Shown piece by piece: positions 5,057 through 19,199 of a stretch of 64,000 nt of DNA. The notes under the pieces are model-generated. The model saw only the letters and a program-made list of their open reading frames with translations. It was not told where the DNA came from and ran no database searches. This DNA comes from a candidate division WOR-3 bacterium (GTDB lineage: Bacteria > Hydrothermota > UBA3072 > B12-G15). The translations under genes were made by a program, and so were the position numbers. The stretch covers positions 7,654 through 71,653 of the forward strand of contig CBFGJG010000004.1 of NCBI GenBank assembly GCA_965649055.1, read 5' to 3'. Every line of letters begins with the position of its first letter. Within the stretch, counting starts at the first letter, position 1.

Positions 5057-5991
5057 ATTCTCTCCCTTAGGACTGATTTTAATTCTTTTATAAATTCAAA
5101 TATGTTTCTATTTTTTATTGTAAATCCTGCTGCATTTCTGTGGCCACCACCATTGTAAATTCCTGCTATTGCGTCTACATCAACATCATTTTTTGAGCGA
5201 AGGGAGATTTTTAATTCATCATCCCTTTCCTTTACTATTGCAGCGGCCTTTACTCCATCTATCATAAGCCCGTACTGGACAACTTCTTCTGTGTCTTCTT
5301 CTTCTGTGTCAAATTTAGCCATCATTTCCTTTGTTACATACATAATGCTGAAACCGTCTTCAACATCAAGGGTTTCAAGGATAGCACCAAGAAGTCTGAT
5401 TTTTCCAAGGGTCTCTCTATACCAGATTCTTTCAGAAACAAGACTCGCATCAACACCATAACTTAAAAGTTCTGATGCTGTGCTCAAAGATTCAGCTGTT
5501 GTATTTGAATACCTGAAAGAACCAGTATCAGTAACAAGACCAAGATATAAATATGTTGCTATCTCTTTGTCAATTTCGCAGAAATTTTTCAATATCTCGT
5601 AGGCAATTTCACAGGTTGAAGAAACCTGTGAGCGAATAATATTTATTGTTCCAAAGAATTCATTACTTATATGATGGTCTATATTTAGAACTGGTTTGGT
5701 GAAATCAATTTTGTTTCTAATCTTACCAATCCTATCGGGGCTTGCCGAATCAAGTATTATTACTGCATCATAATCAGAATCAGGTGGTTCTGTCTTTATA
5801 ATTTCAATCTTTTCAAAATGCCTGAATCTTTTTGGAACAGGGTCGATATTGTATATATATGCATTTTTGCCTTTTTTCTTTAATGCAAGTGCAAATGCTA
5901 TCTGGGAACCGACTGCATCACCATCAGGGTTTTTGTGAGACGATATAAGGAAATCATCATATTTCGAAAGGAATTCTAATACTTCATCCAA
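5053..5991 (-). CDS. nrnA: DHH/DHHA1 phosphoesterase, NrnA-type nanoRNase / pAp phosphatase
   Basis: 'DHH' motif ('IDHHISN') and DHHA1 motif 'GGGHRNAAGF'. Confidence 0.85.
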   Translation of the reverse strand: MDEVLEFLSKYDDFLISSHKNPDGDAVGSQIAFALALKKKGKNAYIYNIDPVPKRFRHFEKIEIIKTEPPDSDYDAVIILDSASPDRIGKIRNKIDFTKPVLNIDHHISNEFFGTINIIRSQVSSTCEIAYEILKNFCEIDKEIATYLYLGLVTDTGSFRYSNTTAESLSTASELLSYGVDASLVSERIWYRETLGKIRLLGAILETLDVEDGFSIMYVTKEMMAKFDTEEEDTEEVVQYGLMIDGVKAAAIVKERDDELKISLRSKNDVDVDAIAGIYNGGGHRNAAGFTIKNRNIFEFIKELKSVLRERI

Positions 5992-6298
5992 TAATTTCTT
6001 CTCCTATTGTATTTTCAGTATCGTCATAGTGAAATGAAAGTCTTGGTGTGTATTTAAGTCTCATCTTTTCACCAAGCCTGTGGCTTATAAATCCGCTTGC
6101 CTTATTTAATATTTCTTCCATTCTGTATTTGTTCTCATCCTGTGATTTAAAATAGACCTTTGCATTTTTTAAATCACTCGAACAATCAACATCTGTTATT
6201 GAAATAAAATTTATTCTTGGGTCATTAATATCCTTTGCAATGATAAGAGAAATCTCTTTTCTCAATGTTACATTTATTCTATCTAATCTGTTTTTCAT
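5984..6298 (-). CDS. rbfA: Ribosome-binding factor A
   Basis: Size, the sequence 'RINVTLRKEISLII…DPRI', and its conserved position downstream of infB. Confidence 0.85.
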   Translation of the reverse strand: MKNRLDRINVTLRKEISLIIAKDINDPRINFISITDVDCSSDLKNAKVYFKSQDENKYRMEEILNKASGFISHRLGEKMRLKYTPRLSFHYDDTENTIGEEIIG

Positions 6299-6579
6299 TT
6301 TTTTATCTCCGTTTTATAGTTTATTATCTGAACATTGAAATCTCTTTCTATCTCTTTAATGGCTTCGGAAAGAACAGAATTTACTATGCTTGCTTCATTC
6401 CCGACGGTTGTGATTGCTATCAGCGACCTTTGCCAGGTATCATTATAACCAACTTCACTTATAGAAACATTAAACTTATTCCTTATTCTTGACTTTAATG
6501 GGTTTAAAATTCTCCTTTTTTCCTTTAATGAAGAAGACAAAGGTATGTGAATATCTATTGTTGTTAAACCGACTATCAT
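6295..6579 (-). CDS. DUF503 (YlxP-like) protein
   Basis: Conserved small protein found between infB and rbfA. The 'IHIP…SLKEKR' pattern matches DUF503. Confidence 0.75.
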   Translation of the reverse strand: MIVGLTTIDIHIPLSSSLKEKRRILNPLKSRIRNKFNVSISEVGYNDTWQRSLIAITTVGNEASIVNSVLSEAIKEIERDFNVQIINYKTEIKK

Positions 6580-8753
6580 AGTTCTCTTGCTTTTTCTGTT
6601 ACTTCGATTATTTCAATTATATCATCTTCTTTAAAATCTTCAAAATTCTCAACACCTATTCCGCATTCAAAGCCTTCCTGAACTTCTTTCACATCGTCTT
6701 TAAATCTTTTTAAGGACGATACTTTTGATTCACAAACAACTTCGCCATTCCTTATAACCCTGCATTTGTATCCCCTTACTACTTTACCAGATGTAACATA
6801 AGAACCTGCAATAATACCAATCTTTGGTATCTTGAATGTTGCTTTCACCTTAACTTTTCCGATAGTTTTTTCAATCTGTTCAGGCTCAAGCATTCCAGAC
6901 AATGCCTTTCGGACATCTTCAATTGCATCGTAGATTATATCATAAGTTCTTATTTCTACTCCTTCTGCCTTTGCTATTTCTTTTGTTTTAGCATTTGGTT
7001 TTACCCTGTAACCAATTATTATGGAATCAGAAGCAGATGCAAGAAGAACATCATTTTCATTTATTTCGCCAACAGCTTTATGAACTATGTTTACTTTTAT
7101 TTCATCTGTTCCAAGTTCAATAAAACTATCTGAGATTGCATCAACTGCACCCATATCTCCACCTTTAACAATAACATTGAGTTCTTTTAATTGACCAGAC
7201 ATTAAATCACTCTGTATTTTTTCAAGTGAAATCTTTTTCTTTCTTACAAGTGATTCCATTCTCTGTATCTGTGCCCTTTTCTCTGCAATCTCTCTTGCTT
7301 TCTTCTCATCTTTTATAACCTGAATAAGTTCCCCTGCGTGTGGTAATTCTTCAAAACTGCATATTTTTAAGGCAAGACCAGGGGTTGCTTCATTATAAAA
7401 TCTATTTCTTTCATCGACAATTCTTTTTATCTTTCCATAAGATATTCCTGCTACTACTGAATCACCAATCCTGAATCTTCCTTTTTTTACAACAGCAGTG
7501 CAGATATTACCAAATCCCTGTTCTTTCTTTGCTTCAATAACATAACCTTCACCGGGACCTTCAAAAGGTGCTTTTAGATTTTGATGCTCTGCAACAAGTA
7601 AGATTGATTCAAGAAGTTCATCTATACCTTCACCGGTTTTTGCAGATATGTCGACAGCAATCACATCTCCGCCATATTCCTGAACAAGCAATTTCTGGTC
7701 CGCAAGTTGTTGACGAACCATAAGTGGATTTGCGGTCGGAAGGTCTATTTTATTTATAGCAACAATTATAGGAACTCCAGCTGATTTTGCGTGATTTATA
7801 GCTTCAATGGTCTGTTCCTTAACGCCTTCAGTTGCGGACACAACAAGAATAACAATATCGGCAACTTTAGCTCCCCTTGCTCTCATCTGTGTAAATGCCT
7901 TATGACCGGGAAGGTCAATAAAGGTGATTATTTTACCGTTATATTCAACATGATAAGCACCTATCTTCTGTGTAATCTTTCCTTTCTCAAGTGCTGTGAG
8001 ATTTATGTTTTGGATATATTCAAGGAGGGTAGTCTTCCCGTGGTCTACATGACCCATAACTGTTATTACAGGTGGTTTTTCCCTGTAATCGCTGTATTCT
8101 TCTTCGGATATTTCTTTTTCAAATTCTTCATGAAGTTCAACTTTGAGGCCATAATCTTCTGCAAGAAGTGTTATTGTTTCAAAATCAAGTCTTTGATTAA
8201 TAGTAACAGGTAGACCAAGCTCAAGACATTTTAATATTATCGTGTTTGGTTCAACTTCAAGAACTTCTGCAAGTTCACTTACTGTTAGTGAAGAAGGTAT
8301 TTTTAATTTTTCTTCGTCTATCTCTATATTTTCAGCTATTTTCTTCTTTTTATATTTTTTCTTTCTCCCTTCTATCTTTGCCTTTGTCTCTTTTATTCTT
8401 TTTTCAATCTCTTTTTCATCTATCTTCTTTTTCTCTTTTCTCTTTTTCTTTTTTACAATTCCTTCCTGAGGTGCGACATATATCTCAAGTATTTCTTCTT
8501 CGGGAGGTTCTTCTGTTGTGATTACTTCTTCAATTTCTTTTGCAGGTTCTTCTTTCTTTATTTCCTTTTCTTCTTTTATTTCTTCCTTTATTTCTTTCTT
8601 CTTTTTTAGAGAATCTATTATTTTTTTCTCATCTTCTTCAGTTAGACTTCCAAGATATCCTTTAACAGAAAGACCAAGTTCGTTTATTATCTCAAGTATC
8701 TTTTCTTTTGTCAGGTTTAACTCTTTTGCAAGTATGTAGACTCTTTTTTTCAT
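6576..8753 (-). CDS. infB: Translation initiation factor IF-2
   Basis: G-domain motifs 'GHVDHGKTTLL', 'DLPGH' and 'NKID', preceded by an E/K-rich N-terminal low-complexity region. Confidence 0.97.
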   Translation of the reverse strand: MKKRVYILAKELNLTKEKILEIINELGLSVKGYLGSLTEEDEKKIIDSLKKKKEIKEEIKEEKEIKKEEPAKEIEEVITTEEPPEEEILEIYVAPQEGIVKKKKRKEKKKIDEKEIEKRIKETKAKIEGRKKKYKKKKIAENIEIDEEKLKIPSSLTVSELAEVLEVEPNTIILKCLELGLPVTINQRLDFETITLLAEDYGLKVELHEEFEKEISEEEYSDYREKPPVITVMGHVDHGKTTLLEYIQNINLTALEKGKITQKIGAYHVEYNGKIITFIDLPGHKAFTQMRARGAKVADIVILVVSATEGVKEQTIEAINHAKSAGVPIIVAINKIDLPTANPLMVRQQLADQKLLVQEYGGDVIAVDISAKTGEGIDELLESILLVAEHQNLKAPFEGPGEGYVIEAKKEQGFGNICTAVVKKGRFRIGDSVVAGISYGKIKRIVDERNRFYNEATPGLALKICSFEELPHAGELIQVIKDEKKAREIAEKRAQIQRMESLVRKKKISLEKIQSDLMSGQLKELNVIVKGGDMGAVDAISDSFIELGTDEIKVNIVHKAVGEINENDVLLASASDSIIIGYRVKPNAKTKEIAKAEGVEIRTYDIIYDAIEDVRKALSGMLEPEQIEKTIGKVKVKATFKIPKIGIIAGSYVTSGKVVRGYKCRVIRNGEVVCESKVSSLKRFKDDVKEVQEGFECGIGVENFEDFKEDDIIEIIEVTEKAREL

Positions 8754-10039
8754 TATTCACCTAAATTCAAAGCCTTATGTATCTCCATAAATATCTTATC
8801 AACTGTTTTTTTACCAAGTCCCGGTAATTTTATGAGTTCTTCTTCACTTGAAGACATAATGTCTTTTGCTGTTTTAAATCCATGTTTCTTTAAAATCTCA
8901 ACAACCTTCTCGTTTAAACCAAGTTCTTCAATCTTCAATTTTTTTCTCTTAGCTTCTTCTACTTCCTTGTGATGTTCAGACTGTGAAACAATCTGGATAT
9001 TATATCCTGTTATTTCATTCGCAAGTTTAATATTTGATTCATCTTTTCCTATTGCAGTTGAAACCTGATCATCCGGGACAACACATATTGCTTTATTACC
9101 TGGCTTTTTTATCATGACTTTTAAAACCTTTGCAAGTGAAAGAGATCTTCCTATGAACACTACCGGGTCAGCACTCCATGGAATAATATCTATTTTTTCA
9201 CCACTTAATTCCTTTGATATTCCCTGAATCCTTGTTCCCCTTGGTCCAACACATGCACCGAGCGGGTCAATCTTTTCATTCTTTGAGTAAACTGCAATTT
9301 TGCATCTAACGCCCGGGATCCTTACAATTTTCTTTATCTCAACTTCGTTTTTAAGTATCTCGGGAATTTCAAACTCAAGGAGTTTTGCTACAAATTGCTT
9401 GCTTGTCCTTGTAAGATATACAACAGGTCCTTTTATCTTTACCTTTTCCCTGTCAGAAGGTCTTTCTTCTACCATCTTTACAATTGCTTTTATAGTCTTA
9501 CCTTTCTTAACAATCTCATTTGGAATCATATCTTCTTTATCAATGAAGGCTTCTATGTCTACAAGTTTCACATAACATCCGGCAGCATAATGATTGGTAA
9601 TTGTTCCTGTTACAAGTTCCCCGATTTTATTCTGATATTTCTTAAGCATAATTTCTCTTTCAGATTCCTTAAATTTCTGTATGAGATTATTTTTAACCTG
9701 ATTTATTGTGTATCTGCTGAATAGTTCCGAGACAGGGTAAGGATAATATATTTTATCACCAACCTTTGCGTCAGGATTTATATTCAATGCATCTTCAAGT
9801 GAAATTTCTTCAATCTCGTTTTTTACATCTGTTTTGTTTCTCACCACCTTCTTTTCGAGATAAAGCTTCACTTCACCTGTTGATTCGGAAATTTCACATA
9901 TAAAACCTTCTTTTTTGTTAAATTTAAGTTCTGCAGCTTTAAGGATTGAATCCTTTAAAGCCGAGACAACAAATTGTTTATCAAATCCCTTTTCCCTTGC
10001 AAGTTCTGTTAACATCTCTACAACTTCTCTATTTATCAT
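8753..10039 (-). CDS. nusA: Transcription termination/antitermination factor NusA
   Basis: NusA N-terminal domain, S1 and KH domains ('GPRGTRIQ…'), and the conserved nusA–infB synteny. Confidence 0.95.
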
Positions 10040-10310
10040 AGTGCCTCCTATTTATCCCAGGTGAAGATACTTCAAGTGTGTATCTTGTTTTTATTAAGTC
10101 TTCAACATCAAGCCTTGTGGATAGTTCCTTTGATATCTTTACACAATCATCAAGGGTAATTCCACCCGGCTTATCAACAAAAACCCTTAAAATTTTTACT
10201 GGATATTTCATCTCAATTTCTATAAGTTCATATTTTTCATCTTCAAAAATGCTCAATGTTTCAAGCACAATTTTCTTTATTTTTTCTTTTAATTCTTCAA
10301 TTCCTTCCAT
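10029..10310 (-). CDS. rimP: Ribosome maturation factor RimP, short form (N-terminal domain only)
   Basis: 'LDVEDLI…[12 protein letters not shown]' matches the RimP N-domain. The ORF ends inside the nusA start overlap and has no C-terminal Sm-like domain. Confidence 0.75.
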
Positions 10311-11989
10311 ATTTTTTCAACACTTTCCTTTACTTTTTCTGGTTCTGTTTTTATTATTTCCCTGTTATCCCTTCTCGAGATTTCAACCTTTCCTTCTTTC
10401 ATAACTTTTGGACCAATCGTAATCCTGATTGGAATTCCAATCAAATCTGCATCTTTAAATTTAGCACCAGGCCCAATGTCTCTGTCGTCTAAGAGTATTT
10501 CGTATTTCTCTCCTAATATTTTATAAAGATTTTCGGAAATTTCAAGTGATTTATTATCTTTTATATCAACAAGGGTTATTATTGCATCAAAAGGGGATAT
10601 GGAAACAGGCCATATTATTCCATCTTTGTCGTTGTAAATTTCAATTGCAGTAGCCATAATTCTTTCAACACCTATACCATAACTTCCCATCACTATTGGT
10701 TTTTGTCTTCCATCTTTATCTGTGAAATTTGCACCTATTGCTTCGGAATACTTTCTTCCGAGTTTAAAAATATGTCCAAGCTCGATTGTGTTTTTTAATA
10801 TTATTTTTGAAGAACATTTCTTACATATATCACCTTCTTTTACATTTCTTATATCAACAAATTTTAATGGCTTAAAATCTCTTCCAATCTCAATTCCCTG
10901 AAGGTGATAATCATCTTTATTTGCGCCGCTCACAAGGTTTCTTCCATCTCTTAAACTTATATCAACATACGAAGGGATATTTAATCCGACAGGACTTATA
11001 TAACCTTTAGTGGCACCTGTAAATTTTTTAATCTCATCATCACTTGCCGGTCTTGAATTCTTAAATAATTGCAAGAATTTGTTTTCATTTACTTCGTAAT
11101 CACCCCTTATAAGGACAAAGAAAGGATTCCCGTTTTCATCAATATATAATAAACTTTTCATAAGCATATATTCAGGGACTGAAAGAAACTGAGATACTTC
11201 TTTTACAGAACCTGTGATGGGTGTATGAATTAATTTAAGGGAAGAACTTTCACCAAAATCCACAGGCAAAGGCTCTGTTTCAGCAACATCAATATTTGAA
11301 GAATATCCACATTTTTCACAAAAGACAATGCTGTCTTCGCCTGCTTTTGACGGAACCATAAATTCGTGAGATTGTGAACCACCCATAATTCCGCTTGATG
11401 CTGAAACAACTATAGTATTTAATTTAACCCGACTGAAAATTTTTTCATAGGCTTCATAATGAAGTTTATAACTTTTGTCAAGACCTTCTTCATTAATATC
11501 AAAAGAATAGGAATCCATCATTATAAATGTTCTTGCCCTTAAAACTCCACCCCTTGGCCTTAACTCGTCCCTGTATTTTATCTGGATTTGATACCACATT
11601 TGCGGAAGGTCATTATAGGATTTGATATCAATCCTTGCAAGCTCGGTCATTATTTCTTCGTGTGTTGGAGCAAGTGCATAATCCCTTTGTTTTCTGTCTT
11701 TTAAACGAAACATCTCGTCTCCGTATTCTTCCCATCTCCCTGTTTTTTCCCAGAGTTCTTTCGGGGTTAATGCAGGAAGCAATAGTTCCTGTGCCCCAAT
11801 TCTATCCATTTCTTCCCTTATTATATTTATGATTTTCTTAAGAACCTTCCATCCTAAAGGAAGATAAACATATACACCACTTGATAATAATTTTATAAAA
11901 CCACCCCTTAAAAGTAAAATATGGCTTATATTTGTTGCTTCTTTCGGTGTTTCTTTAAGGGTTGGTATGTAGCTTTCAGTCCATTTCAT
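10289..11989 (-). CDS. proS: Prolyl-tRNA synthetase (bacterial type with editing insertion)
   Basis: Class II aaRS motifs, N-terminal '[13 protein letters not shown]', and a C-terminal anticodon-binding domain. Confidence 0.95.
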
Positions 11990-12049
11990 AAATATAAAAT
12001 AACAAAATGTTATAATATGTCAATAAAAATTTAAACTTAAAAAAAATCC

Positions 12050-12078
12050 TTGACAAAATTTTAAAAATCATTTATAAT
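12050..12078 (+). promoter_or_regulatory. Consensus sigma70 promoter (TTGACA-17nt-TATAAT) reading rightwards into the non-coding repeat region
   Basis: Exact -35 TTGACA at 12050-12055, a 17-nt spacer, and exact -10 TATAAT at 12073-12078. Confidence 0.6.
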
Positions 12079-12200
12079 AAAAATACAAAATAAAAATTAA
12101 ATTCGCTCTTTGAAATTAGAATAGTTTTTTATACCGGATTAAGGGATAATTTATTACAAATTACTAACTTTGTAATAATTTTCCTGAACGACGCCTGAAG

Positions 12201-12341
12201 TTTTCCACATTTTTTCCACAACGAGATAACAAGTTATTGATAATAATTGAGTTATAGCGAAAATTAAAAAAAATTTCAAACTCATCGTCGTTGTGGTTCA
12301 AAATGAATGAGTTATGAAAAATGTGGATAAAATGTGGATAA
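12201..12341. promoter_or_regulatory. Cluster of four DnaA boxes in inverted arrangement (candidate oriC / DnaA-regulated element)
   Basis: Two TTTTCCACA boxes at 12201-12209 and 12212-12220, one mismatch from TTATCCACA. Two perfect TGTGGATAA boxes (the reverse complement of TTATCCACA) at 12322-12330 and 12333-12341. An inverted repeat ccacaacga/tcgttgtgg lies between them, and an extreme-AT tract lies at 12000-12120. Confidence 0.55.
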
Positions 12342-12405
12342 TTTTTAGGTCTGTGTCGGAAATGCCCTTATAAGTTATTGGTGTTAAATAACTTTCAAGG
12401 GGTGC

Positions 12406-12705
12406 TGTAGCAATCGAACTCCCGTAAGATCGGGATTGCAACCGCATCGATGAAATCGCTCAACTTCATAGCGTTCCTCCTTTGTAGCAATCGAACTCCC
12501 GTAAGATCGGGCTCGAAATAATGGGGACTAGGGATTAGGCATTAGGGACTGGTATATAATAAGTTTATATTTCGATAAAGAATAGATGTGAGAATATAAA
12601 TAAAATGCTTACAAGACTTTATAAGTCTATTAAATAACTAATCCCCAGTCACGAGTCCCCAGTCCCTAAAACACTCCCGTAATATCGGGCTCGAAATAAT
12701 GGGGA
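12406..12705 (+). repeat. Short direct-repeat family with hairpin potential (CCCG-N6-CGGG). Two identical 29-nt copies are separated by a 48-nt unique segment, followed by a third 33-nt partial copy.
   Basis: TGTAGCAATCGAACTCCCGTAAGATCGGG occurs at 12406-12434 and 12483-12511. ACTCCCGTAA[G/T]ATCGGGCTCGAAATAATGGGGA occurs at 12494-12527 and 12673-12705. GC-rich inverted repeats (…TTAGGGACTGG / CCAGTCCCTAA…) flank a ~110-bp AT-rich loop at 12523-12681. Confidence 0.5.
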
Positions 12706-12730
12706 TTAGAGACTTGTGGAATATGGAATA

Positions 12731-12856
12731 ATGTTAGTAGATGATTTGGATGTTTTTAAATTATCACATGGAATTTTATTAAAGGTTTATGAGCTAACGA
12801 GAGAATTTCAAAAAGATAAGATATTTAATTTAACAATGCAATTAAGACGGATATAA
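12731..12856 (+). pseudogene. Truncated four-helix-bundle protein gene (PF05635 / '23S rRNA intervening-sequence protein' / DGR Avd-like family), with a possible further decayed remnant up to ~12930
   Basis: The 41-aa ORF 'MLVDDLDVFKLSHGILLKVYELTREFQKDKIFNLTMQLRRI*' matches the N-terminal half of that family (…LxVWkkA.eLv.eIYklT.kFPkeEkFgLTSQlRRAAvSi…). A stop codon cuts it off where the family continues. Downstream, 'IEGGQKKIERQLLI' may be a frame-shifted remainder. Confidence 0.45.
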
Positions 12857-13205
12857 AGTTCTATATCTATAAATTAAATTGAGGGTGGGCAAAAAAAGAT
12901 TGAAAGACAATTGTTAATAATTTTTTTGATAATTTGAATCCTTATATAAACATTTTATAAATTTCAATCAGGTATTATTAATAGTCTGGTTAAACTATTT
13001 TCCTTAGAGTGTTTTACAATTTATAAACTCATCTGGAATTTCATTATTCAAAATATCAAATAAGCCATTTATTAGAAGATTCACATTAGCAATATTAATT
13101 TGGTTTCTTTCTTATATACAGATTAACAAAAAGGTGAATGGGCAGATTTTTAATGGTTAAGATAGCAATATATTTTGGGAAAATTAAAAAATAACAAAGA
13201 TTTAT

Positions 13206-13234
13206 TTGACAAAAATTTTTTTAACTTTACAATA
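13206..13234 (+). promoter_or_regulatory. Near-consensus sigma70 promoter for the C25 propeptide/peptidase genes
   Basis: TTGACA at 13206-13211, a 16-17 nt spacer, then TACAAT/ACAATA. An AGGAGG RBS sits 7 nt before the ATG at 13256. Confidence 0.5.
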
Positions 13235-13255
13235 ATAAATAAACAGGAGGTATTT

Positions 13256-13843
13256 ATGATTCTCTTATTCGTTTTAATAAATACAGATTTCACCTATATT
13301 TTAAAGTGTTCAGAACCTGAAATTATCTCTGAAAATGGATATGTGAAACTATCTTTGACTGATTATAATTATTTAAGAATTCCTGGTAAACCTGAAATGC
13401 CGTTTAAACCAATTGTATTTCTTCTGCCACCTGATGCAATCTTTAAAACAATTTCTTTTGAATTACTTGATTCGACAATAATAGACCTTCATAACCTTAT
13501 ATTTCCTGCTCAAAGATATATACCATTTTTTAAAGATAGTAAGGTAGAAAGGGTTGAACCTGATAAAAATGTATACAGTTCGAATGAACCTTATCCCGGG
13601 ATATTAATAAAGAGTTTCGGAGAAAGCAGGAAAGGCGTCTTCAGACTTTTGACAATTAATATCTATCCAATCCAGTATATACCAGCGCTTAACAGGTTAA
13701 TTATATACGATATCAAGTTAAGAATTGAATATGAAAACTCTGACAAATTCGTGAAGATAAACAGAAATCAATTTGAATTCCATAAGAAGGGTGTTGAGAA
13801 GTTAGTAATAAATCCAGAAATGATTGATTATTACAGGAGGTAA
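13256..13843 (+). CDS. Stand-alone peptidase-C25 (gingipain-type) N-terminal propeptide-domain protein with signal peptide
   Basis: The start is placed at the Met with a strong RBS; the ORF track begins at 13175. 'ENGYVKLSL…IPGKPEMPFKPIVFLLPPDA…FPAQ…YPG…RLLTINIYPIQYIPA' follows the Propeptide_C25 pattern (G.PxLP…LPP.A…P…YP…R…L.I.P.qY.P). Confidence 0.65.
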   Translation: MILLFVLINTDFTYILKCSEPEIISENGYVKLSLTDYNYLRIPGKPEMPFKPIVFLLPPDAIFKTISFELLDSTIIDLHNLIFPAQRYIPFFKDSKVERVEPDKNVYSSNEPYPGILIKSFGESRKGVFRLLTINIYPIQYIPALNRLIIYDIKLRIEYENSDKFVKINRNQFEFHKKGVEKLVINPEMIDYYRR

Positions 13844-13845
13844 GG

Positions 13846-16719
13846 ATGAAAAGATTATTTCCGATATTTTTTATAAGCCTTTTCATATATCCACAAAGTT
13901 TAAAGATACTATATGAACCATTAGAGGGTGTTCCACTTTACCCGGCAAAAACCACACCTTTAATGAAAGAGATTAATGTCTTAGAAACAAGGCAAAGCCC
14001 TGTTAATTTTTATAGAACATCTTCTCATCATCCTGATAAAATTGGACATACAGATTTTAAAGAAATATACGGAAGACCTGTTGTAAATTACCCATTAGAG
14101 TTTTTAGATTCAAAGGTATCATACGATACACTCTCATACTGGAATACTGCTTCAACAAATTTCTTTTACTGGAATCAGCCGGATAACTATGGTGATATAA
14201 ATTATTCTGTCCGCTTCACACCCATTAACAATGGAACATTGAAAAGTGCGATATTCTGGTTCTATAATCTTGTAGGTTCTGGTAATATAAGGATTCATGT
14301 ATGGAATGATAATTGGGGTTATCCTGGAACAGAACTCGGGTATGTTGATTTTCCAACATCAGGTATAGCCGGCTGGCCTTATGGAACTATAATAGATCTT
14401 TCATCTTTAGGGATAAATGTTACAGCAGGGAACGATTTTTATGTTGGATATTCTTTATTATCAGGTGTCAGCACCTTAGGACTCGTTTATGATACATTTG
14501 GTCTTGCACCTGAAAGATGCTATGATTATTGGCCTACCTTTAGTATGTGGGAAACATCCGACTGGATTCATGATAATATTACATGGCTTATTGAGGCAGT
14601 TGTTGAGGTTGGTGCTGGTGGACAACCTAATCTCACATATTACACACCAACGGGATGGGATGGACCGATAGTTCCATCATCTGTATCAGGGACACACACA
14701 ACAGGTCCAAATCTTCAGGGCGGTGCTACGACATATATAGACTGGGCTATTATAAATAATGGAAGTGATACTGCACTGGCAACATTCTATATTTATCTTT
14801 ATTCAGATGGAATACCAATAGGAGGATGGTATACTGATTCACTTCCACCTAACTATTATACTTATGTTGAAGATTGGACATATACATTCTCATCAGGGAA
14901 TCATACACTTGGAATATTTGCAGATTCAACAAATACGATTTCTGAAAGCAATGAGACAGACAATAAATATTCGCAGGTCTTCTCATGGGGTGGAGGTGGT
15001 GGAGGAGGAATTTCAGGTGTGAAATATATTATTATCACAAGTCCGAGTTTTGTTTCATACTTTGAACCACTTGCATGGTGGAAGACCAAAAAAGGTGTCC
15101 CTGCAAAGATTGTAACTACTGATTACATATATGCAAATTATTCGGGAACTGATAACCAACAGAAGATAAGAAATTATATATCTGCACAGGCTGATTCAGG
15201 TGTATTGTATATACTCCTTGGTGGTCAGATGGACTGGGAACATGGTGAAGGTATAGTTCCAAGAAGGGATGTTTGGTGCATGCAAAGTGGAGGTGGAGGA
15301 TATCCAGATGAAGATACTATCCCAACAGATATGTATTATTCAAATCTTGATGGGAACTGGAATGGTGACGGGGATAATGTTTATGGTGAGATGGGTGATA
15401 ATGTAGACCTTTATTCAGATATTGCAATAGGAAGGGCACCTGTAAAAAATACATCACAGGTTACAAATTTTGTGAATAAGGTCTTAACTTATGAAAAGAA
15501 TCCACCAACAAGTTATATTAAGAAAATACTTCTTCCATCTGTGAAGCTTTTTGATTATTATTATCATGGAGTAAATTATTACGGATATGTTGTGAATAAT
15601 GCAATCTCAAATATAACACCAGCAGGCTGGCAGGATTCAAAACTTGAAGATAACAATAATTCGCAGTCATGGAATTTAAGACAGGCTATAAAAGATTCAC
15701 TTAATAATGGTTTCCATTTCTGCCATTTTGCAGCACACGGTGATGAATACGGACATTACTATCTCTTAGGAAACACTGTATACAATTATTCAGATGCACA
15801 AACAATGAACAATGGAACAAAATATTCAATCATAAATGCAATTTCCTGTTTTACAGGTGCTGTTGATGAGGCAGGTTCATCTGCAAGTTATGATTGTATC
15901 GCAGAACACTATGTGAACAGGGTTTCAAATGGGGCTGTTGCAACTATTATGAATACAAGATATGGACTTGCTTATCCACCGAGTATGGGACCATCAGAGG
16001 TTCTTGATACAACATTCTATCGCTTGATATTTCTTGAAGGGTTTTATCACCTTGGTGAAGCACATATGGAGGCAAGGGATAGATGGGCAAGCTCTGCACA
16101 ATCAGATCAGGGATTCAGATGGTGTGTTTATGAGTTAACACTTTTTGGTGACCCTGAAATGCCTATATGGACAGATACACCACAGAATATGAATGTATCT
16201 ATAAATCTTGATTCACTCATTGTTGGACAGAACAATAATCTTATAGTAACAGTCCAGACTGCGAAGGCACCTGTGCAGAATGCCCTTGTCTGTCTTGCAA
16301 CAAAAAACTATGATGTATATGATACATTATTAACAAATTCAAGTGGCCAGGCAAATTTCACTGTGAATCCTTCAGCTGAAGAGACAATATTTATAACTGT
16401 AACAAAACATAATTACATACCTTATGAGACATACAGACTTTCAAAAATCTCCACAGGTATCTCTGATGATACGGGAAAACTAAACTTCTATCTTTCTTTA
16501 AATTCCGGAAAAGGAATAAATGTGAATTATGATATTCCAGAAAAAGGCGAAGTGAAAATATCTGTTTTAGATATTGTTGGAAGGAAGAAAGAGATTTACA
16601 GAAATATTGTAGAAAAAGGAAAACATAATATTGTATATAAACCAGAAAAATTCGGTGTTTATTTCATTATGCTTGAATATAAGGAAAAATCTATTCTTAA
16701 GAAGATTGTTTATTTTTAA
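13846..16719 (+). CDS. Secreted multidomain cysteine peptidase, family C25 (gingipain-like). Domains in order: signal peptide, N-terminal beta/CARDB-like region, poly-Gly linker, C25 catalytic domain, Ig-like domain, T9SS C-terminal sorting domain.
   Basis: Catalytic-domain hallmarks 'YIIITSPSFVSYFEPLAWWKTKKG', His in 'AAHGDEYGHYY' and Cys in 'AISCFTG'. A G7 linker is present. The C-terminal ~80 aa, 'KGEVKISVLDIVGRK…YFIMLEY…KIVYF', is typical of a Por/T9SS CTD. Confidence 0.8.
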   Translation: MKRLFPIFFISLFIYPQSLKILYEPLEGVPLYPAKTTPLMKEINVLETRQSPVNFYRTSSHHPDKIGHTDFKEIYGRPVVNYPLEFLDSKVSYDTLSYWNTASTNFFYWNQPDNYGDINYSVRFTPINNGTLKSAIFWFYNLVGSGNIRIHVWNDNWGYPGTELGYVDFPTSGIAGWPYGTIIDLSSLGINVTAGNDFYVGYSLLSGVSTLGLVYDTFGLAPERCYDYWPTFSMWETSDWIHDNITWLIEAVVEVGAGGQPNLTYYTPTGWDGPIVPSSVSGTHTTGPNLQGGATTYIDWAIINNGSDTALATFYIYLYSDGIPIGGWYTDSLPPNYYTYVEDWTYTFSSGNHTLGIFADSTNTISESNETDNKYSQVFSWGGGGGGGISGVKYIIITSPSFVSYFEPLAWWKTKKGVPAKIVTTDYIYANYSGTDNQQKIRNYISAQADSGVLYILLGGQMDWEHGEGIVPRRDVWCMQSGGGGYPDEDTIPTDMYYSNLDGNWNGDGDNVYGEMGDNVDLYSDIAIGRAPVKNTSQVTNFVNKVLTYEKNPPTSYIKKILLPSVKLFDYYYHGVNYYGYVVNNAISNITPAGWQDSKLEDNNNSQSWNLRQAIKDSLNNGFHFCHFAAHGDEYGHYYLLGNTVYNYSDAQTMNNGTKYSIINAISCFTGAVDEAGSSASYDCIAEHYVNRVSNGAVATIMNTRYGLAYPPSMGPSEVLDTTFYRLIFLEGFYHLGEAHMEARDRWASSAQSDQGFRWCVYELTLFGDPEMPIWTDTPQNMNVSINLDSLIVGQNNNLIVTVQTAKAPVQNALVCLATKNYDVYDTLLTNSSGQANFTVNPSAEETIFITVTKHNYIPYETYRLSKISTGISDDTGKLNFYLSLNSGKGINVNYDIPEKGEVKISVLDIVGRKKEIYRNIVEKGKHNIVYKPEKFGVYFIMLEYKEKSILKKIVYF

Positions 16720-16797
16720 TGGTATTTTTTAAGTTTAAAAAGTAAAATTTTTAAAATGCTCAAAACATAGAATTTTACAGAATTTTAAAAAAAATAC

Positions 16798-16826
16798 TTG
16801 ACAAAATGCAAGATTTTATATATATT
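16798..16826 (+). promoter_or_regulatory. Near-consensus sigma70 promoter of the HU gene
   Basis: TTGACA at 16798-16803, a 17-nt spacer, TATATT at 16821-16826. A GGAGGTG RBS sits upstream of a TTG/GTG start. Confidence 0.55.
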
Positions 16827-16848
16827 TCAATCAACCAAAAGGAGGTGA

Positions 16849-17127
16849 TTGGTGAACAAAAAACAGATAATTGAACAAGTTGCAAAAGATGCAGGTATTT
16901 CCAAAAAACAGGCACAGAAGTCGCTTGACTCTGTTCTTGCAAACATTCAGAAGGCACTGAAGAAAGGTGACAAGGTTACATTTGTTGGATTTGGAACATT
17001 TATGGTTAGGAAGAGGAAAGCAAGGATTGCAAGAAATCCAAGGAATCCAAACCAGACTATTAAAGTTCCTGCAAAGAAAGTTCCTGTTTTTAAAGCTGGT
17101 AACCTGCTTAAAAAATCAGTATCTTAA
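16849..17127 (+). CDS. hup: DNA-binding protein HU (probable TTG or GTG start)
   Basis: 'GFGTF.V…R.ARNP.T' HU/IHF signature, 92 aa. Confidence 0.92.
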   Translation: MVNKKQIIEQVAKDAGISKKQAQKSLDSVLANIQKALKKGDKVTFVGFGTFMVRKRKARIARNPRNPNQTIKVPAKKVPVFKAGNLLKKSVS

Positions 17128-17131
17128 TGAT

Positions 17132-17158
17132 AGGGGGCTTTAAGCCCCCTTTTTTTTA
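17132..17158 (+). terminator. Rho-independent terminator after hup
   Basis: agggggctt-taa-gccccct stem-loop followed by a T9 run. Confidence 0.85.
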
Positions 17159-17487
17159 TGCAAAAAATTTTTTTAATATTCGCATTATCACTTGTTATTG
17201 AAAGGGCACTTGAACAGATAAGTGAATTTATCCCAAGAAAGAGAAGAAAAAAAGTTATGTGGTTACTTTCAATGGTATTATCACTTATAATTACTTTCAT
17301 ATGTAAGATAGGTGTGTTAAGAGAACTTGGGATAATTCAAGGTAATGGAATTGTCTATTTTCTTGATTATTTTCTTACAGGTTTGATAATTAGCAGTGGT
17401 TCCGAACCTGTTCATTCACTTATAATCGCACTTGAAAGCAAAAAAGAGGAATTGAAACAAAAAGTAAAAAAAATTGAGAAGAACTGA
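17158..17487 (+). CDS. Small hypothetical membrane protein (2-3 TM)
   Basis: Hydrophobic segments only. No recognisable family. Confidence 0.35.
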   Translation: MQKIFLIFALSLVIERALEQISEFIPRKRRKKVMWLLSMVLSLIITFICKIGVLRELGIIQGNGIVYFLDYFLTGLIISSGSEPVHSLIIALESKKEELKQKVKKIEKN

Positions 17488-18361
17488 AGAAGCAATCATA
17501 GATTTCATATATAAAAAATTCAAAAATTTTAGAAAGATTAAAAAAGGTATTGGAGATGATTGTGCAATTTTAGATGATTATGCAATAACAAAAGATATAT
17601 ATATTGAAGGAACTCATTTTACAAAATTATTGGAACCAAAGGCTATAGGATGGAGGACATTTGCAGGTGCTTTGAGTGATATTGCAGCAGTAGGTGGGGA
17701 ACCTTTTTATTTTTTATTCGGAATTGGACTACCACAGGATTACGATGAGAAATTTTTTAGAGCATTAATACAGGGGATTAAAGAATTGTCAGATATGTTT
17801 AAGGTTCAGGTAATAGGTGGGGATACTGTAAAAAGCGAAAAGATAGTTCTTTCTTATACTGTTATTGGAAGAATTAAAAAACCAATATACAGGATTGGTG
17901 CAAAAGAAAACGATAATATATACATTACAGGAAATATTGGTGGATCAAGGCTTGGATATGAATTTAATCTGAAGAATGAAAAGTTTTTATTCCCGATTCC
18001 AAGGATAAAAGAGATAAAAAATATTTTGAAAAAATATAAAATAAATTCAATGATAGATATATCAGATGGACTTGTACTAGATTCCATAAGGGTTTCAAAT
18101 GAGAGTAATGTCAGATTCAATCTGTTTTCCAATTTGATTCCTTTGAATAAAGAAGCTATAGATTATTGTAAAAAAAATAATCTGAATCCAGTGGAGTTTT
18201 GTATAAACAGTGGTGAAGAGTATGAAATACTTTTTACTTCACCTGAAAAAATAAATATGGAAGGTATTAGAATGATAGGATTTGTTTCAAAAGGAAAAGG
18301 TGTTTACCTTGATAACAGGAAAATAAAACATAGAGGTTTCAAGCATTTCGATGAAGATTAA
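17474..18361 (+). CDS. thiL: Thiamine-monophosphate kinase
   Basis: AIR-synthase-related fold, with 'GIGDDCAIL', 'YIEGTHF' and 'GGDTV'. Confidence 0.85.
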   Translation: MRRTEEAIIDFIYKKFKNFRKIKKGIGDDCAILDDYAITKDIYIEGTHFTKLLEPKAIGWRTFAGALSDIAAVGGEPFYFLFGIGLPQDYDEKFFRALIQGIKELSDMFKVQVIGGDTVKSEKIVLSYTVIGRIKKPIYRIGAKENDNIYITGNIGGSRLGYEFNLKNEKFLFPIPRIKEIKNILKKYKINSMIDISDGLVLDSIRVSNESNVRFNLFSNLIPLNKEAIDYCKKNNLNPVEFCINSGEEYEILFTSPEKINMEGIRMIGFVSKGKGVYLDNRKIKHRGFKHFDED

Positions 18362-19199
18362 AAATATCTGTATTCCCTGTGCATTGGATTTTGCATACAG
18401 AACCCTTAAATTTACAGGATTTGAAGATAATGAGAAAATTATGAAGGAAATTCTAAGGGAGGTTGCTTCAATTGATTATTCTTTAACACCTGCACACCTT
18501 GGAACTATTATATCAAGAAGGATAAAAAAACTAACAGGGATAGAAGACCCATATAAAGAAGAAAAGAAGAAACAGAATGAAATTGGGAAAAAGATATATA
18601 AGATTTTAAAAGAGATAATTTCAGGTTCAAAAAATTCAGTAGTTGATGCAATTAAAATATCATGTGTTGGAAATTCAATAGACCTTGGCGCAACTGGAAT
18701 TATAAATATAGATTTTGATAAAATAAAAAAAGAATTAAATTTTGAGCTTGAAGAGAAAAAACTAAAAGATTTTATAGAGAAACTGAAAAAAGCAAAGAGT
18801 GTATTTTTTATAAGCGATAATGCTGGTGAGATTATGTTTGATAAAGTATTCCTTGAAGAGATAAAAGATAAAAAACTATATGTGAGTGTAAAAACCAAAC
18901 CAATAATCAATGATATTACGATAGAAGAAATAGATGATACGGGAATAAAAGATTTTGCCGAGATTATAGAAACAGGAACTGATTCGATAGGTATAATGAT
19001 GGATGAAGTAACTGATGAGTTTAAAAAAATATTTTTCACAGCTGATATGGTTATTGCAAAAGGACATGGAAATTTTGAGACACTTGTTGATAGTAAAAGA
19101 GAAGTTTTTTTCATGCTTAAGGCGAAATGTGATTATGTTGCTCAAACACTCAAAATTTCTAAGTATTCATATTTTACAGGTAATAATTCTATTGATTAA
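18351..19199 (+). CDS. DUF89 / ARMT1-like damage-control phosphatase family protein
   Basis: 'ISDNAGEIMFD' and 'AKGHGNFE' match the DUF89 metal-binding motifs. Confidence 0.65.
   Translation: MKIKNICIPCALDFAYRTLKFTGFEDNEKIMKEILREVASIDYSLTPAHLGTIISRRIKKLTGIEDPYKEEKKKQNEIGKKIYKILKEIISGSKNSVVDAIKISCVGNSIDLGATGIINIDFDKIKKELNFELEEKKLKDFIEKLKKAKSVFFISDNAGEIMFDKVFLEEIKDKKLYVSVKTKPIINDITIEEIDDTGIKDFAEIIETGTDSIGIMMDEVTDEFKKIFFTADMVIAKGHGNFETLVDSKREVFFMLKAKCDYVAQTLKISKYSYFTGNNSID

Follow-up and report, generated by a model that had tools for sequence, protein, structure and literature searches.

The interval 12050-12519 of the 64-kb window, by which we mean the whole stretch of DNA analysed, is very probably a CRISPR leader followed by a mini-array, as judged from its repeats, its leader and their relatives in metagenomes. 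A promoter (12050-12078) opens a 328-nt leader, which is followed by a 36-nt repeat, a 41-nt spacer and a terminal repeat that is degenerate over its last 8 nt, and the best explanation of this order, which we regard as probable, is an orphan CRISPR locus at its minimum size, with a complete leader and its own sigma-70 promoter. Tiny orphan arrays of this type are common, and in this respect the locus is an ordinary finding. The gain is one of annotation: a puzzling promoter and hairpin-repeat region becomes recognisable as an orphan CRISPR leader-array module, which shows that a WOR-3 / Stahlbacteria-related bacterium has, or had in the past, a CRISPR system linked to type III.

Table 1. Features of the leader, mini-array and trailer region, with positions counted along the window.
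Feature	Position	Strand	Description
Leader promoter	12050-12078	+	-35 TTGACA at 12050-12055, 17-nt spacer, -10 TATAAT at 12073-12078
CRISPR leader	12079-12406	+	328 nt, 29% GC, ends in junction GGGTGCT/GTAGCAA
Palindrome in leader	12151-12178	.	perfect, 10 bp, TTATTACAAA-N8-TTTGTAATAA, read directly
Long-range inverted repeat in leader	12186-12292	.	GAACGACG (12186-12193) and CGTCGTT (12286-12292)
Two one-mismatch DnaA-like boxes	12201-12220	+	TTTTCCACA; 11-bp phase, opposite in orientation to the perfect pair
Two perfect DnaA-box consensus 9-mers	12322-12341	-	TTATCCACA; 11-bp phase, 66-85 nt upstream of repeat 1
CRISPR repeat 1	12407-12442	+	36 nt, GTAGCAATCGAACTCCCGTAAGATCGGGATTGCAAC; hairpin UCCCG-6-CGGGA, then intact 3' end ATTGCAAC
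Spacer	12443-12483	+	CGCATCGATGAAATCGCTCAACTTCATAGCGTTCCTCCTTT; 41 nt, 46% GC
Terminal repeat 2	12484-12519	+	first 28 nt as in repeat 1, last 8 nt CTCGAAAT instead of ATTGCAAC; 32/36
Trailer hairpin	12520-12672	+	heptad-like arms GGGGACT AGGGATT AGGCATT AGGGACT / ...CCAGTCA CGAGTCC CCAGTCC CTAA; AT-rich loop
Copy 3	12673-12705	+	ACTCCCGTAATATCGGGCTCGAAATAATGGGGA; repeat positions 12-28, degenerate 8 nt and 8 nt of trailer
Truncated four-helix-bundle gene (23S rRNA intervening-sequence protein family)	12731-12856	+	41 codons, then stop

Two 36-nt direct repeats flank a unique 41-nt spacer, which is the minimum possible array, and the segment 12407-12519 stands out in GC content (49% vs 31% for the window), as an earlier note on this DNA had remarked. 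With up to 3 mismatches allowed, the window has three occurrences of the 16-nt hairpin core CTCCCGTAAGATCGGG (0.03 expected), matching the three hairpin-repeat copies described there; these score 36, 32 and 24 of 36, and no other copy in the window rises above the shuffle maximum of 22/36. The same note had seen identical 29-mers on either side of a 48-nt unique segment. The 29-mers (12406-12434 and 12483-12511) are indeed identical, but the true repeat is 36 nt long and the spacer 41 nt, the 48-nt segment having taken in the last 8 nt of repeat 1 (ATTGCAAC), which we predict to be the crRNA tag. Irregular spacing, which had been held against a CRISPR array, loses its force, since the partial third copy is no unit of the array and the repeat-to-repeat spacing of 77 nt lies within the 73-81 nt of related arrays; the spacer, too, falls inside the 37-45 nt range of 66 spacers from those arrays. 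The terminal repeat degenerates just after CGGG, at the same place as in the L002 and L024 arrays, and the polarity from leader through array to degenerate repeat agrees with that of cas-adjacent arrays. Between 11990 and 13175, the longest ORF is 49 aa, bearing out the 1.2 kb reported to be free of ORFs of at least 60 aa, and a search of the whole window found no tRNA or tmRNA. Rfam, searched with 11000-14000 at permissive E-values, gave nothing significant; the best relevant model was CRISPR-DR36 (RF01346, E = 9.5), against which the window repeat reaches 14.5 bits (gathering score 38), so that it resembles this family without being a member and represents a different repeat family.

Further copies of the repeat, which the earlier note had proposed to look for elsewhere, exist in related arrays on metagenome contigs. 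Repeat 1 is 33/36 identical to the repeat of the L001, L002 and L012 arrays and 32/36 identical to that of L024, and it has its termini GTAGCAAT...ATTGCAAC in common with the L029 repeat. Differences within the family avoid the stems or alter both of their sides (T8:A29 to A8:T29 in L024, an inner G:C to A:U in L029). In the one metagenome scan on which our sampling of the family rests, an exact-pattern search with the repeat core, matches came from two contigs only (26 and 34, at 73-81-nt spacing); the same pattern had no hit in IMG/VR or in a set with one genome for each GTDB species, and a search of plasmids with the repeat returned no match. Repeat copies number 26 and 35 in the L001 and L002 contigs (35 in L002) and at least 13 in L012, and L024 holds 12 units. 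The arrays of the two scan-positive contigs follow cas1-cas2, beside Cmr6, CARF, Card1 and a beta-CASP-CARF fusion, and those of L012 come after Csm2-, Csm4- and RAMP-family genes; L024 is a second cas1-cas2-CARF locus and L029 a third, with Cmr5. In the relatives, the repeat and leader family thus adjoins cas1-cas2, CARF and type III (Cmr/Csm-like) effector genes, and no Cas6 gene was seen in any of the related loci examined.

The perfect TTGACA-17-TATAAT promoter reported earlier is present and is the sole 12/12 match in the 64 kb on either strand; first-order Markov simulations predict 0.1 matches in a whole window and 0.005 in 1.2 kb of this composition. At least three of the window's 11/12 matches sit directly upstream of gene starts (13206, 16798, 31177), from which it appears that the organism uses this consensus, and transcription would start at about 12085. 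The earlier suggestion of a repeat-spacer-repeat mini-array driven by a consensus promoter is upheld by the cas-adjacent arrays of the family, in which this promoter proves to be the conserved distal end of the leader: at the same place, homologous leaders score 11/12 (L024), 12/12 (L028) and 12/12 (L029), and a sigma-70 promoter of 11-12/12 opens four independent leaders.

From the -35 box to the junction with the first repeat, the window (12050-12406) aligns end to end with the leader of L024/L022 (236/331 identical), which sits after cas1-cas2-CARF in a genomic context other than that of the window. The leader-repeat junction is the same in both, the last 7 nt of the leader are identical, and identity reaches 80-83% in the block from -118 to -38. 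Conserved blocks alternate with diverged stretches, the lowest 40-column block being 54% identical, a pattern that suggests selection on motifs for most of the time since the split from L024. The palindrome in the leader is retained in L024 (TAATACAAATT...ATTGTATTA, where both arms have changed) and in L028 (TATTACAAATT...AATTTGTAATA); the arms of the long-range inverted repeat are conserved and longer in L024 (GAACGACGACACC / GGTGTCGTCGTTC), with most of the ~100 nt between them diverged. The L001/L002 leader, also considered as a homologue, bears no resemblance to that of the window, and leader homology was found only with the L024 subfamily.

The locus is chromosomal, lying between proS and a C25 peptidase gene (neighbours proS, nusA and infB), and no mobile-element gene was seen beside it. 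The ProS of the window is 55-61% identical to ProS of candidate division WOR-3 / Stahlbacteria MAGs. L011, the closest relative available (ProS 83% identical), is without the whole 1.2-kb region, and so the element is not a conserved feature of this position. A Pfam scan of the 50 window ORFs of at least 120 aa found no cas gene and no reverse-transcriptase or DUF2325 domain; the absence of cas genes that had been counted against a functional array thus holds for these ORFs but has no bearing on the rest of the genome.

Orphan CRISPR arrays and mini-arrays apart from cas genes have been catalogued in surveys of prokaryotic genomes and mobile elements (for example the reviews PMC8616872 and PMC7038947). 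The window locus shares with them a promoter-bearing leader, a cas-linked repeat family, a normal spacer length, a degenerate terminal repeat and the lack of adjacent cas genes; unlike the catalogued orphan arrays on viruses or plasmids, it is chromosomal, amid housekeeping genes, and has a single spacer and a fully preserved leader. Type III-associated repeats that are processed by Cas6 end in ATTG[A/C]AAC, which gives rise to an 8-nt 5' tag. The window repeat is built in the same way, with 36 nt, a short G:C hairpin and then the 8 nt ATTGCAAC, from which we infer similar processing, and, as with type III arrays, its relatives adjoin Cmr6, Cmr5, Csm2/Csm4-like, CARF and Card1 genes.

We tentatively propose, at somewhat less than even probability, that the array is still expressed and used in trans; such use would rest on genes outside the window, because no cas gene is among the 50 scanned ORFs. 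RNA polymerase would start at the predicted site and transcribe leader and array, and a Cas6-type endoribonuclease encoded elsewhere in the genome would cut each repeat at the 3' base of the CCCG/CGGG hairpin, yielding a single crRNA with the 8-nt 5' tag AUUGCAAC and a 41-nt guide. A type III complex supplied in trans might then use this guide against transcripts containing AAAGGAGGAACGCUAUGAAGUUGAGCGAUUUCAUCGAUGCG, which would be the ribosome-binding site and first nine codons of a gene, presumably from a mobile element. The reverse complement of the spacer reads AAAGGAGG-N6-ATG AAG TTG AGC GAT TTC ATC GAT GCG, that is, a ribosome-binding site followed by MKLSDFIDA, and the predicted crRNA is antisense to this RBS-ATG-ORF; RNA-targeting type III systems require a crRNA antisense to the transcript.

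The search of the spacer segment against phages and plasmids, likewise proposed in the earlier note, produced only chance matches covering 17-30 of 41 nt (blastn against 50,697 phage records and 72,556 plasmids). A scan of IMG/VR with an exact spacer 25-mer and a codon-degenerate MKLSDFIDA pattern gave no protospacer, nor did the related loci, and within the window the spacer is unique both as DNA and as peptide (best partial match at most 25/41, shared exact word at most 10 nt, none near the locus). Most environmental spacers are without a known match, and the missing protospacer is therefore weak evidence. Once a protospacer is found, this single spacer could tie an uncultured host to a virus or plasmid.

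Downstream of the array, the trailer hairpin folds at -42.9 kcal/mol (z = -4.0; 0/200 shuffles fold as well). The inverted repeat described earlier as 12 bp around a loop of ~110 nt exists, but its perfect part is 11 bp (12542-12552 / 12659-12669), with a 106-nt loop between the perfect cores, which sit within imperfect arms of ~31 nt (12522-12552 / 12638-12669). Analogous hairpins come directly after the last repeat in L002 (z = -5.3) and L024 (z = -4.7), and a heptad-armed hairpin follows the last repeat in 3/3 related arrays with a readable trailer. We found no other GC-rich hairpin of this kind across the window, no IMG/VR match to the trailer junction CGGGCTCGAAATAATGGGGA and no intrinsic terminator after the array. 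Conceivably, the heptad-armed hairpin has a function of its own in the trailer, either as a terminator or processing site or as the place where four-helix-bundle gene cassettes dock. The third, 33-nt partial copy had rightly been said to share its 3' extension with copy 2, being 32/33 identical to 12495-12527; it is missing the first 11 nt of the repeat, and its loop carries T, like the L001/L002 arrays, where copies 1 and 2 carry G. By this comparison, copy 3 is a duplicate of the 3' half of the terminal repeat together with trailer.

The Avd-like fragment mentioned earlier corresponds to the 41-aa product of 12731-12856, which matches Pfam PF05635 (23S_rRNA_IVP) with E = 4e-6 over profile positions 2-37 of 106, at 27.4 bits against a gathering threshold of 33.8 and far from the full length of ~106 residues. 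Its sequence is that of a truncated pseudogene, with no continuation in any frame and with 320 nt of 23% GC downstream that hold no recognisable feature. A homologue search with the fragment found only the fragment itself, no other database protein sharing words with it, and tblastn against plasmids found nothing. Four-helix-bundle (PF05635) genes may normally sit inside heptad-armed hairpins. The window has an N-terminal PF05635 fragment next to a long hairpin, immediately beyond the trailer of the array, and in this it recalls the CRISPR-linked module UAS-8, which combines a 23S rRNA IVP with DUF2325, sometimes with a reverse transcriptase (PMC10910872); unlike UAS-8, it has a fragment of 41 codons only, and no DUF2325 or reverse-transcriptase domain was found. 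Copy 3, the 150-nt hairpin and the truncated gene would be trailer material left by duplication and deletion, outside the array.

These remains bear on the possibility, plausible although we rate it just short of even, that the locus is dead, all that is left of a CRISPR-cas locus after deletion and recombination between repeats removed its cas genes and its other spacers. A single spacer, with a duplicated repeat fragment and a truncated gene alongside, looks like locus decay, as do the featureless AT-rich stretch beyond the 23S_rRNA_IVP remnant, the lack of a cas gene among the scanned ORFs and the position of the region at a synteny break relative to L011. Repeat 2 itself looks recombinant, because its 5' 28 nt equal repeat 1, including the derived loop G, and its 3' end is common to copy 3, which retains the loop T of the family. 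Against such decay, no damage is seen in repeat 1 and its 8-nt tag, the two hairpins, the junction of leader and repeat or the 12/12 promoter; divergence from the L024 leader runs in blocks, the lowest at 54% identity, with 30 nt over the DnaA boxes unchanged; and type III systems often use arrays away from their cas genes. A dead array might still be transcribed, with its crRNA unused.

A regulatory or decoy role, in which the mini-array would act like CreA/CreR to repress a host promoter or toxin gene, or like an RNA anti-CRISPR (Racr) to sequester Cas6 or other Cas proteins, seems to us very improbable. CreA and CreR are located within cas operons and match a promoter close by, and CreTA and CreR are reportedly degenerate mini-CRISPRs that regulate toxins or cas genes (work attributed to Li et al. 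2021 and Liu et al. 2023). Like these, the window locus has two repeats flanking one spacer-like sequence in a predicted separate transcription unit; unlike them, it has no cas operon found in the window and no spacer match near the locus, the partial matches within the window staying at the low level given above. The mini-array format with its own strong promoter would suit a role of this kind, and the spacer complement spans a ribosome-binding site and start codon, which would be a good site for repression. Racrs are solitary repeat units on phages and plasmids (PMC10651486), and the promoter upstream of a repeat-like hairpin, together with repeat 2 and copy 3, which keep the hairpin with an altered tag in the manner of decoy repeats, is reminiscent of them. 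The window differs from Racrs, however, in its intact repeat, its spacer and its adaptation-type leader, and no mobile-element context was seen between proS and the C25 peptidase gene; repeat 1 and the leader have their homologues in ordinary arrays that are competent for adaptation, which counts against both roles. Still further removed is the structured non-coding RNA or retroelement-associated repeat that the earlier note had left open. The segment 12400-12720 does fold somewhat better than shuffles (z = -2.55), the Avd-like gene fragment adjoins it, and 23S rRNA IVP genes accompany reverse transcriptases in UAS-8 (PMC10910872), but Rfam gave no family match save the sub-threshold CRISPR repeat model, the scanned ORFs include no reverse-transcriptase domain, and homology to CRISPR arrays, from which the repeat core derives, fully accounts for repeats and leader. 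The array and leader homology effectively refutes this reading, which retains hardly any probability.

Within the CRISPR leader, the two perfect DnaA boxes make up 2 of the 4 in the 64 kb. They lie equally far from the first repeat in the window and in L024/L022, whose leader agrees with that of the window at every base over 30 nt that take in the two boxes and flanking sequence, within ~40 nt that are almost identical; the pair is absent from the L002, L012 and L029 leaders. The one-mismatch pair further upstream is not conserved in L024. It is conceivable but unlikely that the tandem perfect boxes are a functional part of the leader. IHF is the architectural host factor of spacer integration in type I-E and I-F systems, and to our knowledge little is known about host factors for integration outside such IHF-dependent type I systems. 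A protein that binds the motif, DnaA or another, could be such a factor for leader-proximal spacer integration, or, alternatively, it could gate pre-crRNA transcription by replication status. If the pair is functional, a DnaA-dependent leader would couple CRISPR adaptation or expression to the replication cycle. A full-text literature search for a link between DnaA boxes and CRISPR leaders returned no paper.

The boxes also raise the question of whether promoter and DnaA boxes are an oriC or a DnaA-titrating site on which CRISPR fragments merely landed. Four DnaA-type boxes, two of them perfect, lie within 140 nt; the flanking genes diverge (- strand left of 11989, + strand right of 13175); cumulative GC skew is at its lowest in the window at ~12 kb; and a per-gene regression, whose best breakpoint falls at 14-17 kb, gives a side effect of +0.08 beyond that of strand. 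The GC skew of the window nevertheless chiefly tracks the coding strand, dnaA and dnaN were not found among the 50 scanned ORFs, and L011 and L003 are without the box cluster upstream of proS. We downgraded the oriC idea, which now appears remote, because the perfect pair proved to be part of a CRISPR leader conserved in L024/L022 in another genomic context. Matches of 12317-12345 to gokushoviruses are not leader homology, as these viruses carry the same DnaA-box motif clusters in their non-coding region. The pair, which can also be written as a TGTGGATAAAATGTGGATAA pair, lies where the leader is best conserved between two lineages; apart from this, their leaders share only ~71% identity.

The element lies in a gene-free stretch of 1.2 kb (11990-13175) flanked by proS and a C25-type peptidase gene pair, within a segment of bacterial chromosome of 31% GC whose housekeeping genes include infB, nusA, proS, secDF, dnaB, radA and accC. 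An earlier note had proposed that a consensus promoter here drives a hairpin-repeat family, either a mini-array or a structured non-coding RNA. All the components it listed are present in the window, and the region is indeed free of ORFs reaching 60 aa. Repeat and leader homology to cas-adjacent arrays bears out the repeat-spacer-repeat reading, such that the element is very probably a CRISPR leader followed by a mini-array (12050-12519).

Three occurrences of the 16-nt hairpin core are present where 0.03 were expected, and no further degenerate repeat copy exceeded the shuffle maximum. An exact-pattern scan of metagenome contigs for this core matched two contigs, in which it recurs 26 and 34 times at a spacing of 73-81 nt (35 repeat copies in one of them, L002), and the 36-nt repeat of these arrays reads GTATCATTC(A/G)AACTCCCGTAATATCGGGATTGCAAC. 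The window's period of 77 nt and its 41-nt spacer fall within the geometry of the family (spacers of related arrays are 37-45 nt long, median 42, n=66), and the last repeat is degenerate at its 3' end in the window, as it is in L002 and in L024, a contig of a second cas locus type.

Features of the array, its leader and its surroundings (window positions)
Feature	Position	Strand	Sequence	Remark
proS	10289-11989	-		left neighbour
Conserved leader feature			CTTGACAAAAT	-35 box and flank
Conserved leader feature			GCTCTTTGA	
Conserved leader feature	12151-12178			palindrome
Two one-mismatch DnaA boxes	12201-12220			
Conserved leader feature			GAACGACG ... CGTCGTT	long-range inverted repeat
Conserved leader feature			AATGAAT(G/A)AGTTAT(G/A)AAAAATGTGGATAAAATGTGGATAATTTTT	almost identical run of ~40 nt; final 30 nt exactly identical
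Conserved leader feature			GTCGGAAATG	
Two perfect DnaA boxes	12322-12341	-	TTATCCACA	11-bp phase; 66-85 nt before repeat 1
Conserved leader feature			GGGTGCT/GTAGCAA	leader-repeat junction (at slash)
Repeat 1	12407-12442		GTAGCAATCGAACTCCCGTAAGATCGGGATTGCAAC	33/36 identical to metagenome repeat
Spacer	12443-12483			41 nt
Repeat 2	12484-12519			first 28 nt as in repeat 1, then degenerate: CTCGAAAT replaces ATTGCAAC
Copy 3	12673-12705			repeat without its first 11 nt; 32/33 identity to repeat 2 region
23S-rRNA-IVP/four-helix-bundle (Avd-like) gene fragment	12731-12856			41 codons, truncated; directly after array trailer
C25-type peptidase gene pair	13175-16719	+		right neighbour

Both metagenome arrays are located after cas1-cas2, and their flanking genes encode a Cmr6 RAMP protein (TIGR01898, 181 bits against a cutoff of 51), CARF proteins, a Card1-like nuclease and a beta-CASP-CARF fusion; in L012, a longer contig sharing their Cas1, Csm2-, RAMP- and Csm4-family genes lie upstream. 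The Card1-like CARF nuclease and the fusion, an 837-aa protein joining a beta-CASP metallo-beta-lactamase nuclease to a CARF domain (Cas_APE2256), lie 3' of the 35-repeat array of L002 (7096-8199 and 9386-11899), and the beta-CASP part of the fusion scores 156 bits with the type VII Cas14 model, below the cutoff of 800. A further metagenome contig with the same cas1-cas2 (L018, 3055-3426) shows one repeat followed by ~330 nt without a second, explained either by an assembly join or by a further minimal array. Through a Cas1 homologue 58% identical to that of the first loci, we reached a second locus type (L022-L025), laid out as an RDD gene, a zinc-ribbon gene, cas1, cas2, a CARF gene, and then leader and array, with a repeat (GTAGCAAACTAACTCCCGTAACATCGGGTTTGCAAC) identical to repeat 1 at 32/36 positions. 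The RDD-domain and zinc-ribbon proteins precede cas1-cas2 in all four contigs, which diverge farther upstream; RDD is listed among new adaptation-module associations (PMC10910872). No Cas6 was seen among the fetched loci, and a scan of 50 ORFs (120 aa or longer) across the 64-kb window yielded no cas gene. Judged at the sequence level, the element is an orphan CRISPR array whose repeat family is type III-linked and of the Cas6 type, and it adds one more example to this known class.

Every repeat copy is predicted to fold as UCCCG-6 nt-CGGGA, and repeat 1 can form an extra outer stem, GCAA/UUGC. By direct reading of the aligned repeats, the stems are spared or the changes compensated across four repeat variants: position 8:29 pairs T with A in the window and A with T in L024, and the window's innermost pair, G:C, corresponds to A:U in L029 (a type III locus), whose stem is longer by one pair. 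Exactly 8 nt (ATTGCAAC) lie 3' of the repeat hairpin. A hairpin followed by 8 nt is the layout of Cas6-processed repeats, giving an 8-nt 5' tag. The element reaches no repeat family's threshold in Rfam, matches no described structured RNA, and does not fit the context that defines Racr decoys or CreA/CreR regulators.

In reverse complement, the spacer gives AAAGGAGG-N6-ATG AAG TTG AGC GAT TTC ATC GAT GCG, a ribosome-binding site and then an open frame, MKLSDFIDA. With the array oriented as it is, the predicted crRNA would be antisense to the MKLSDFIDA mRNA, and type III RNA-guided targeting requires a crRNA antisense to mRNA. The window holds no protospacer at up to 3 mismatches (best partial matches elsewhere in it, at most 25/41), and none was found in phage genomes, plasmids, IMG/VR contigs or the fetched loci.

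The third of the three copies claimed earlier is present as sequence but is not an array unit. It shares with repeat 2 the hairpin and the 16 non-canonical nt after it (CTCGAAATAATGGGGA), and is therefore a duplicate of the 3' half of the terminal repeat together with trailer, which accounts for the irregular spacing that had been held against an array. The hairpin loop has the family's T in copy 3 and G in repeats 1 and 2. In a simple account, repeat 2 could have arisen by recombination between an internal repeat and the former terminal one, which would mean that a longer array has collapsed. The interval from repeat 2 to copy 3 (12520-12672) is occupied by a 150-nt hairpin with an AT-rich loop and arms made up of runs of heptad-like units (z = -4.0), and a long hairpin likewise follows immediately after the degenerate last repeat in L002 (6890-7010; z = -5.3) and L024 (4965-5147; z = -4.7). 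All three family arrays with a readable trailer have a heptad-armed hairpin of the same architecture, with unrelated arm sequences, and no other of this kind was found elsewhere in the window. The four-helix-bundle fragment is followed 3' by featureless AT-rich DNA, and no other protein in a collection of 5.8 billion shares words with its 41 codons. A statistical association of 23S-rRNA-IVP genes with CRISPR acquisition modules has been reported (UAS-8; PMC10910872) and is a lead for the gene remnant beside this array. These trailer hairpins with the gene remnant, and the conserved DnaA-box pair of the leader, are the noteworthy details of the element.

The TTGACA-17-TATAAT promoter (12050-12078) was confirmed as the sole perfect match in 64 kb, with ~0.1 expected per window. 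Two more cas-adjacent leaders, those of L028 and of L029 (with Cmr5, from an NCBI assembly), open with a 12/12 promoter, and the consensus promoter is therefore a feature of the leader family, not chance. At least three of the window's 11/12 matches lie directly upstream of gene starts (13206, 16798, 31177), an indication that this consensus is in use in the organism. From the promoter to the first repeat (12050-12406), the window aligns end to end with the L022-L025 leader, with an identity to L024/L022 of 71% overall, 80-83% in the 80 nt before position -38 and 54% in the poorest 40-column block. The promoter and the ~330 nt behind it can accordingly be identified, from this homology, as a CRISPR leader.

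Whether the array is still used in trans or is a relic divides our judgement roughly evenly. Promoter, junction, first repeat, tag and hairpins are intact, the spacer is of normal length, and the block-wise conservation argues that selection acted on the leader over most of its history, while decay is suggested by the lone spacer, the duplicated fragment and the gene truncation. The DnaA boxes raise the possibility that they mark a replication origin, or that one lies nearby at 12-17 kb: besides the perfect and one-mismatch boxes, gene orientation diverges around 12-17 kb (2156-19199), the window's cumulative GC skew is lowest at ~12 kb, and a per-gene regression yields, beyond a strand effect of 0.16, a position effect of +0.08 whose best breakpoint falls at 14-17 kb. 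However, the perfect pair belongs to the best-conserved part of the leader and is identical in L024/L022 (L024 4006-4025), where the genomic context differs.

As a functional part of the CRISPR leader, the pair is a doubtful candidate, seen in two lineages only; the leaders of L002, L012 and L029 lack it, those of L002 and L029 being more distant, and a full-text literature search returned no report linking DnaA boxes with CRISPR leaders. Two Gokushovirus/Microviridae genomes (KT264787.1, 395-500; MG945568.1, 388-470) carry 5-6 copies of the DnaA-box motif AAATGTGGATAA in a non-coding region, some in matching 11-bp tandem arrangement. This clustering explains short blastn matches to window positions 12317-12345 and is more consistent with a protein-binding site in wide use than with a sequence confined to one lineage.

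The window's ProS is 55-61% identical to ProS of MAGs labelled candidate division WOR-3 or Stahlbacteria. In the closest retrievable relative (L011; ProS 83% identical), only 170 nt lie upstream of proS (9829-10001), the proS promoter is kept, the element is absent, and the neighbouring gene is a different one with no relation to the C25 peptidase. This makes the module lineage-specific and places it at a synteny break (11990-13175). The proS promoter (11989-12023, - strand; TTGACA-16-TATTTT with TG before the -10), also conserved in L011 (9965-10003), ends just 6 nt from the ATG, which suggests a leaderless or nearly leaderless mRNA. The C25 (gingipain-like) peptidase comprises two adjoining ORFs, for a propeptide domain (13175-13843, 222 aa) and for peptidase plus CARDB domain (13846-16719, 957 aa), divided by a single stop codon; this may reflect a genuine split, a frameshift or an error in sequencing. 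Farther away, at 2156-3709 (- strand), the window encodes a PIF1-like superfamily-1 helicase with a C-terminal WYL domain; WYL domains are known as ligand-sensing regulators within defence loci.
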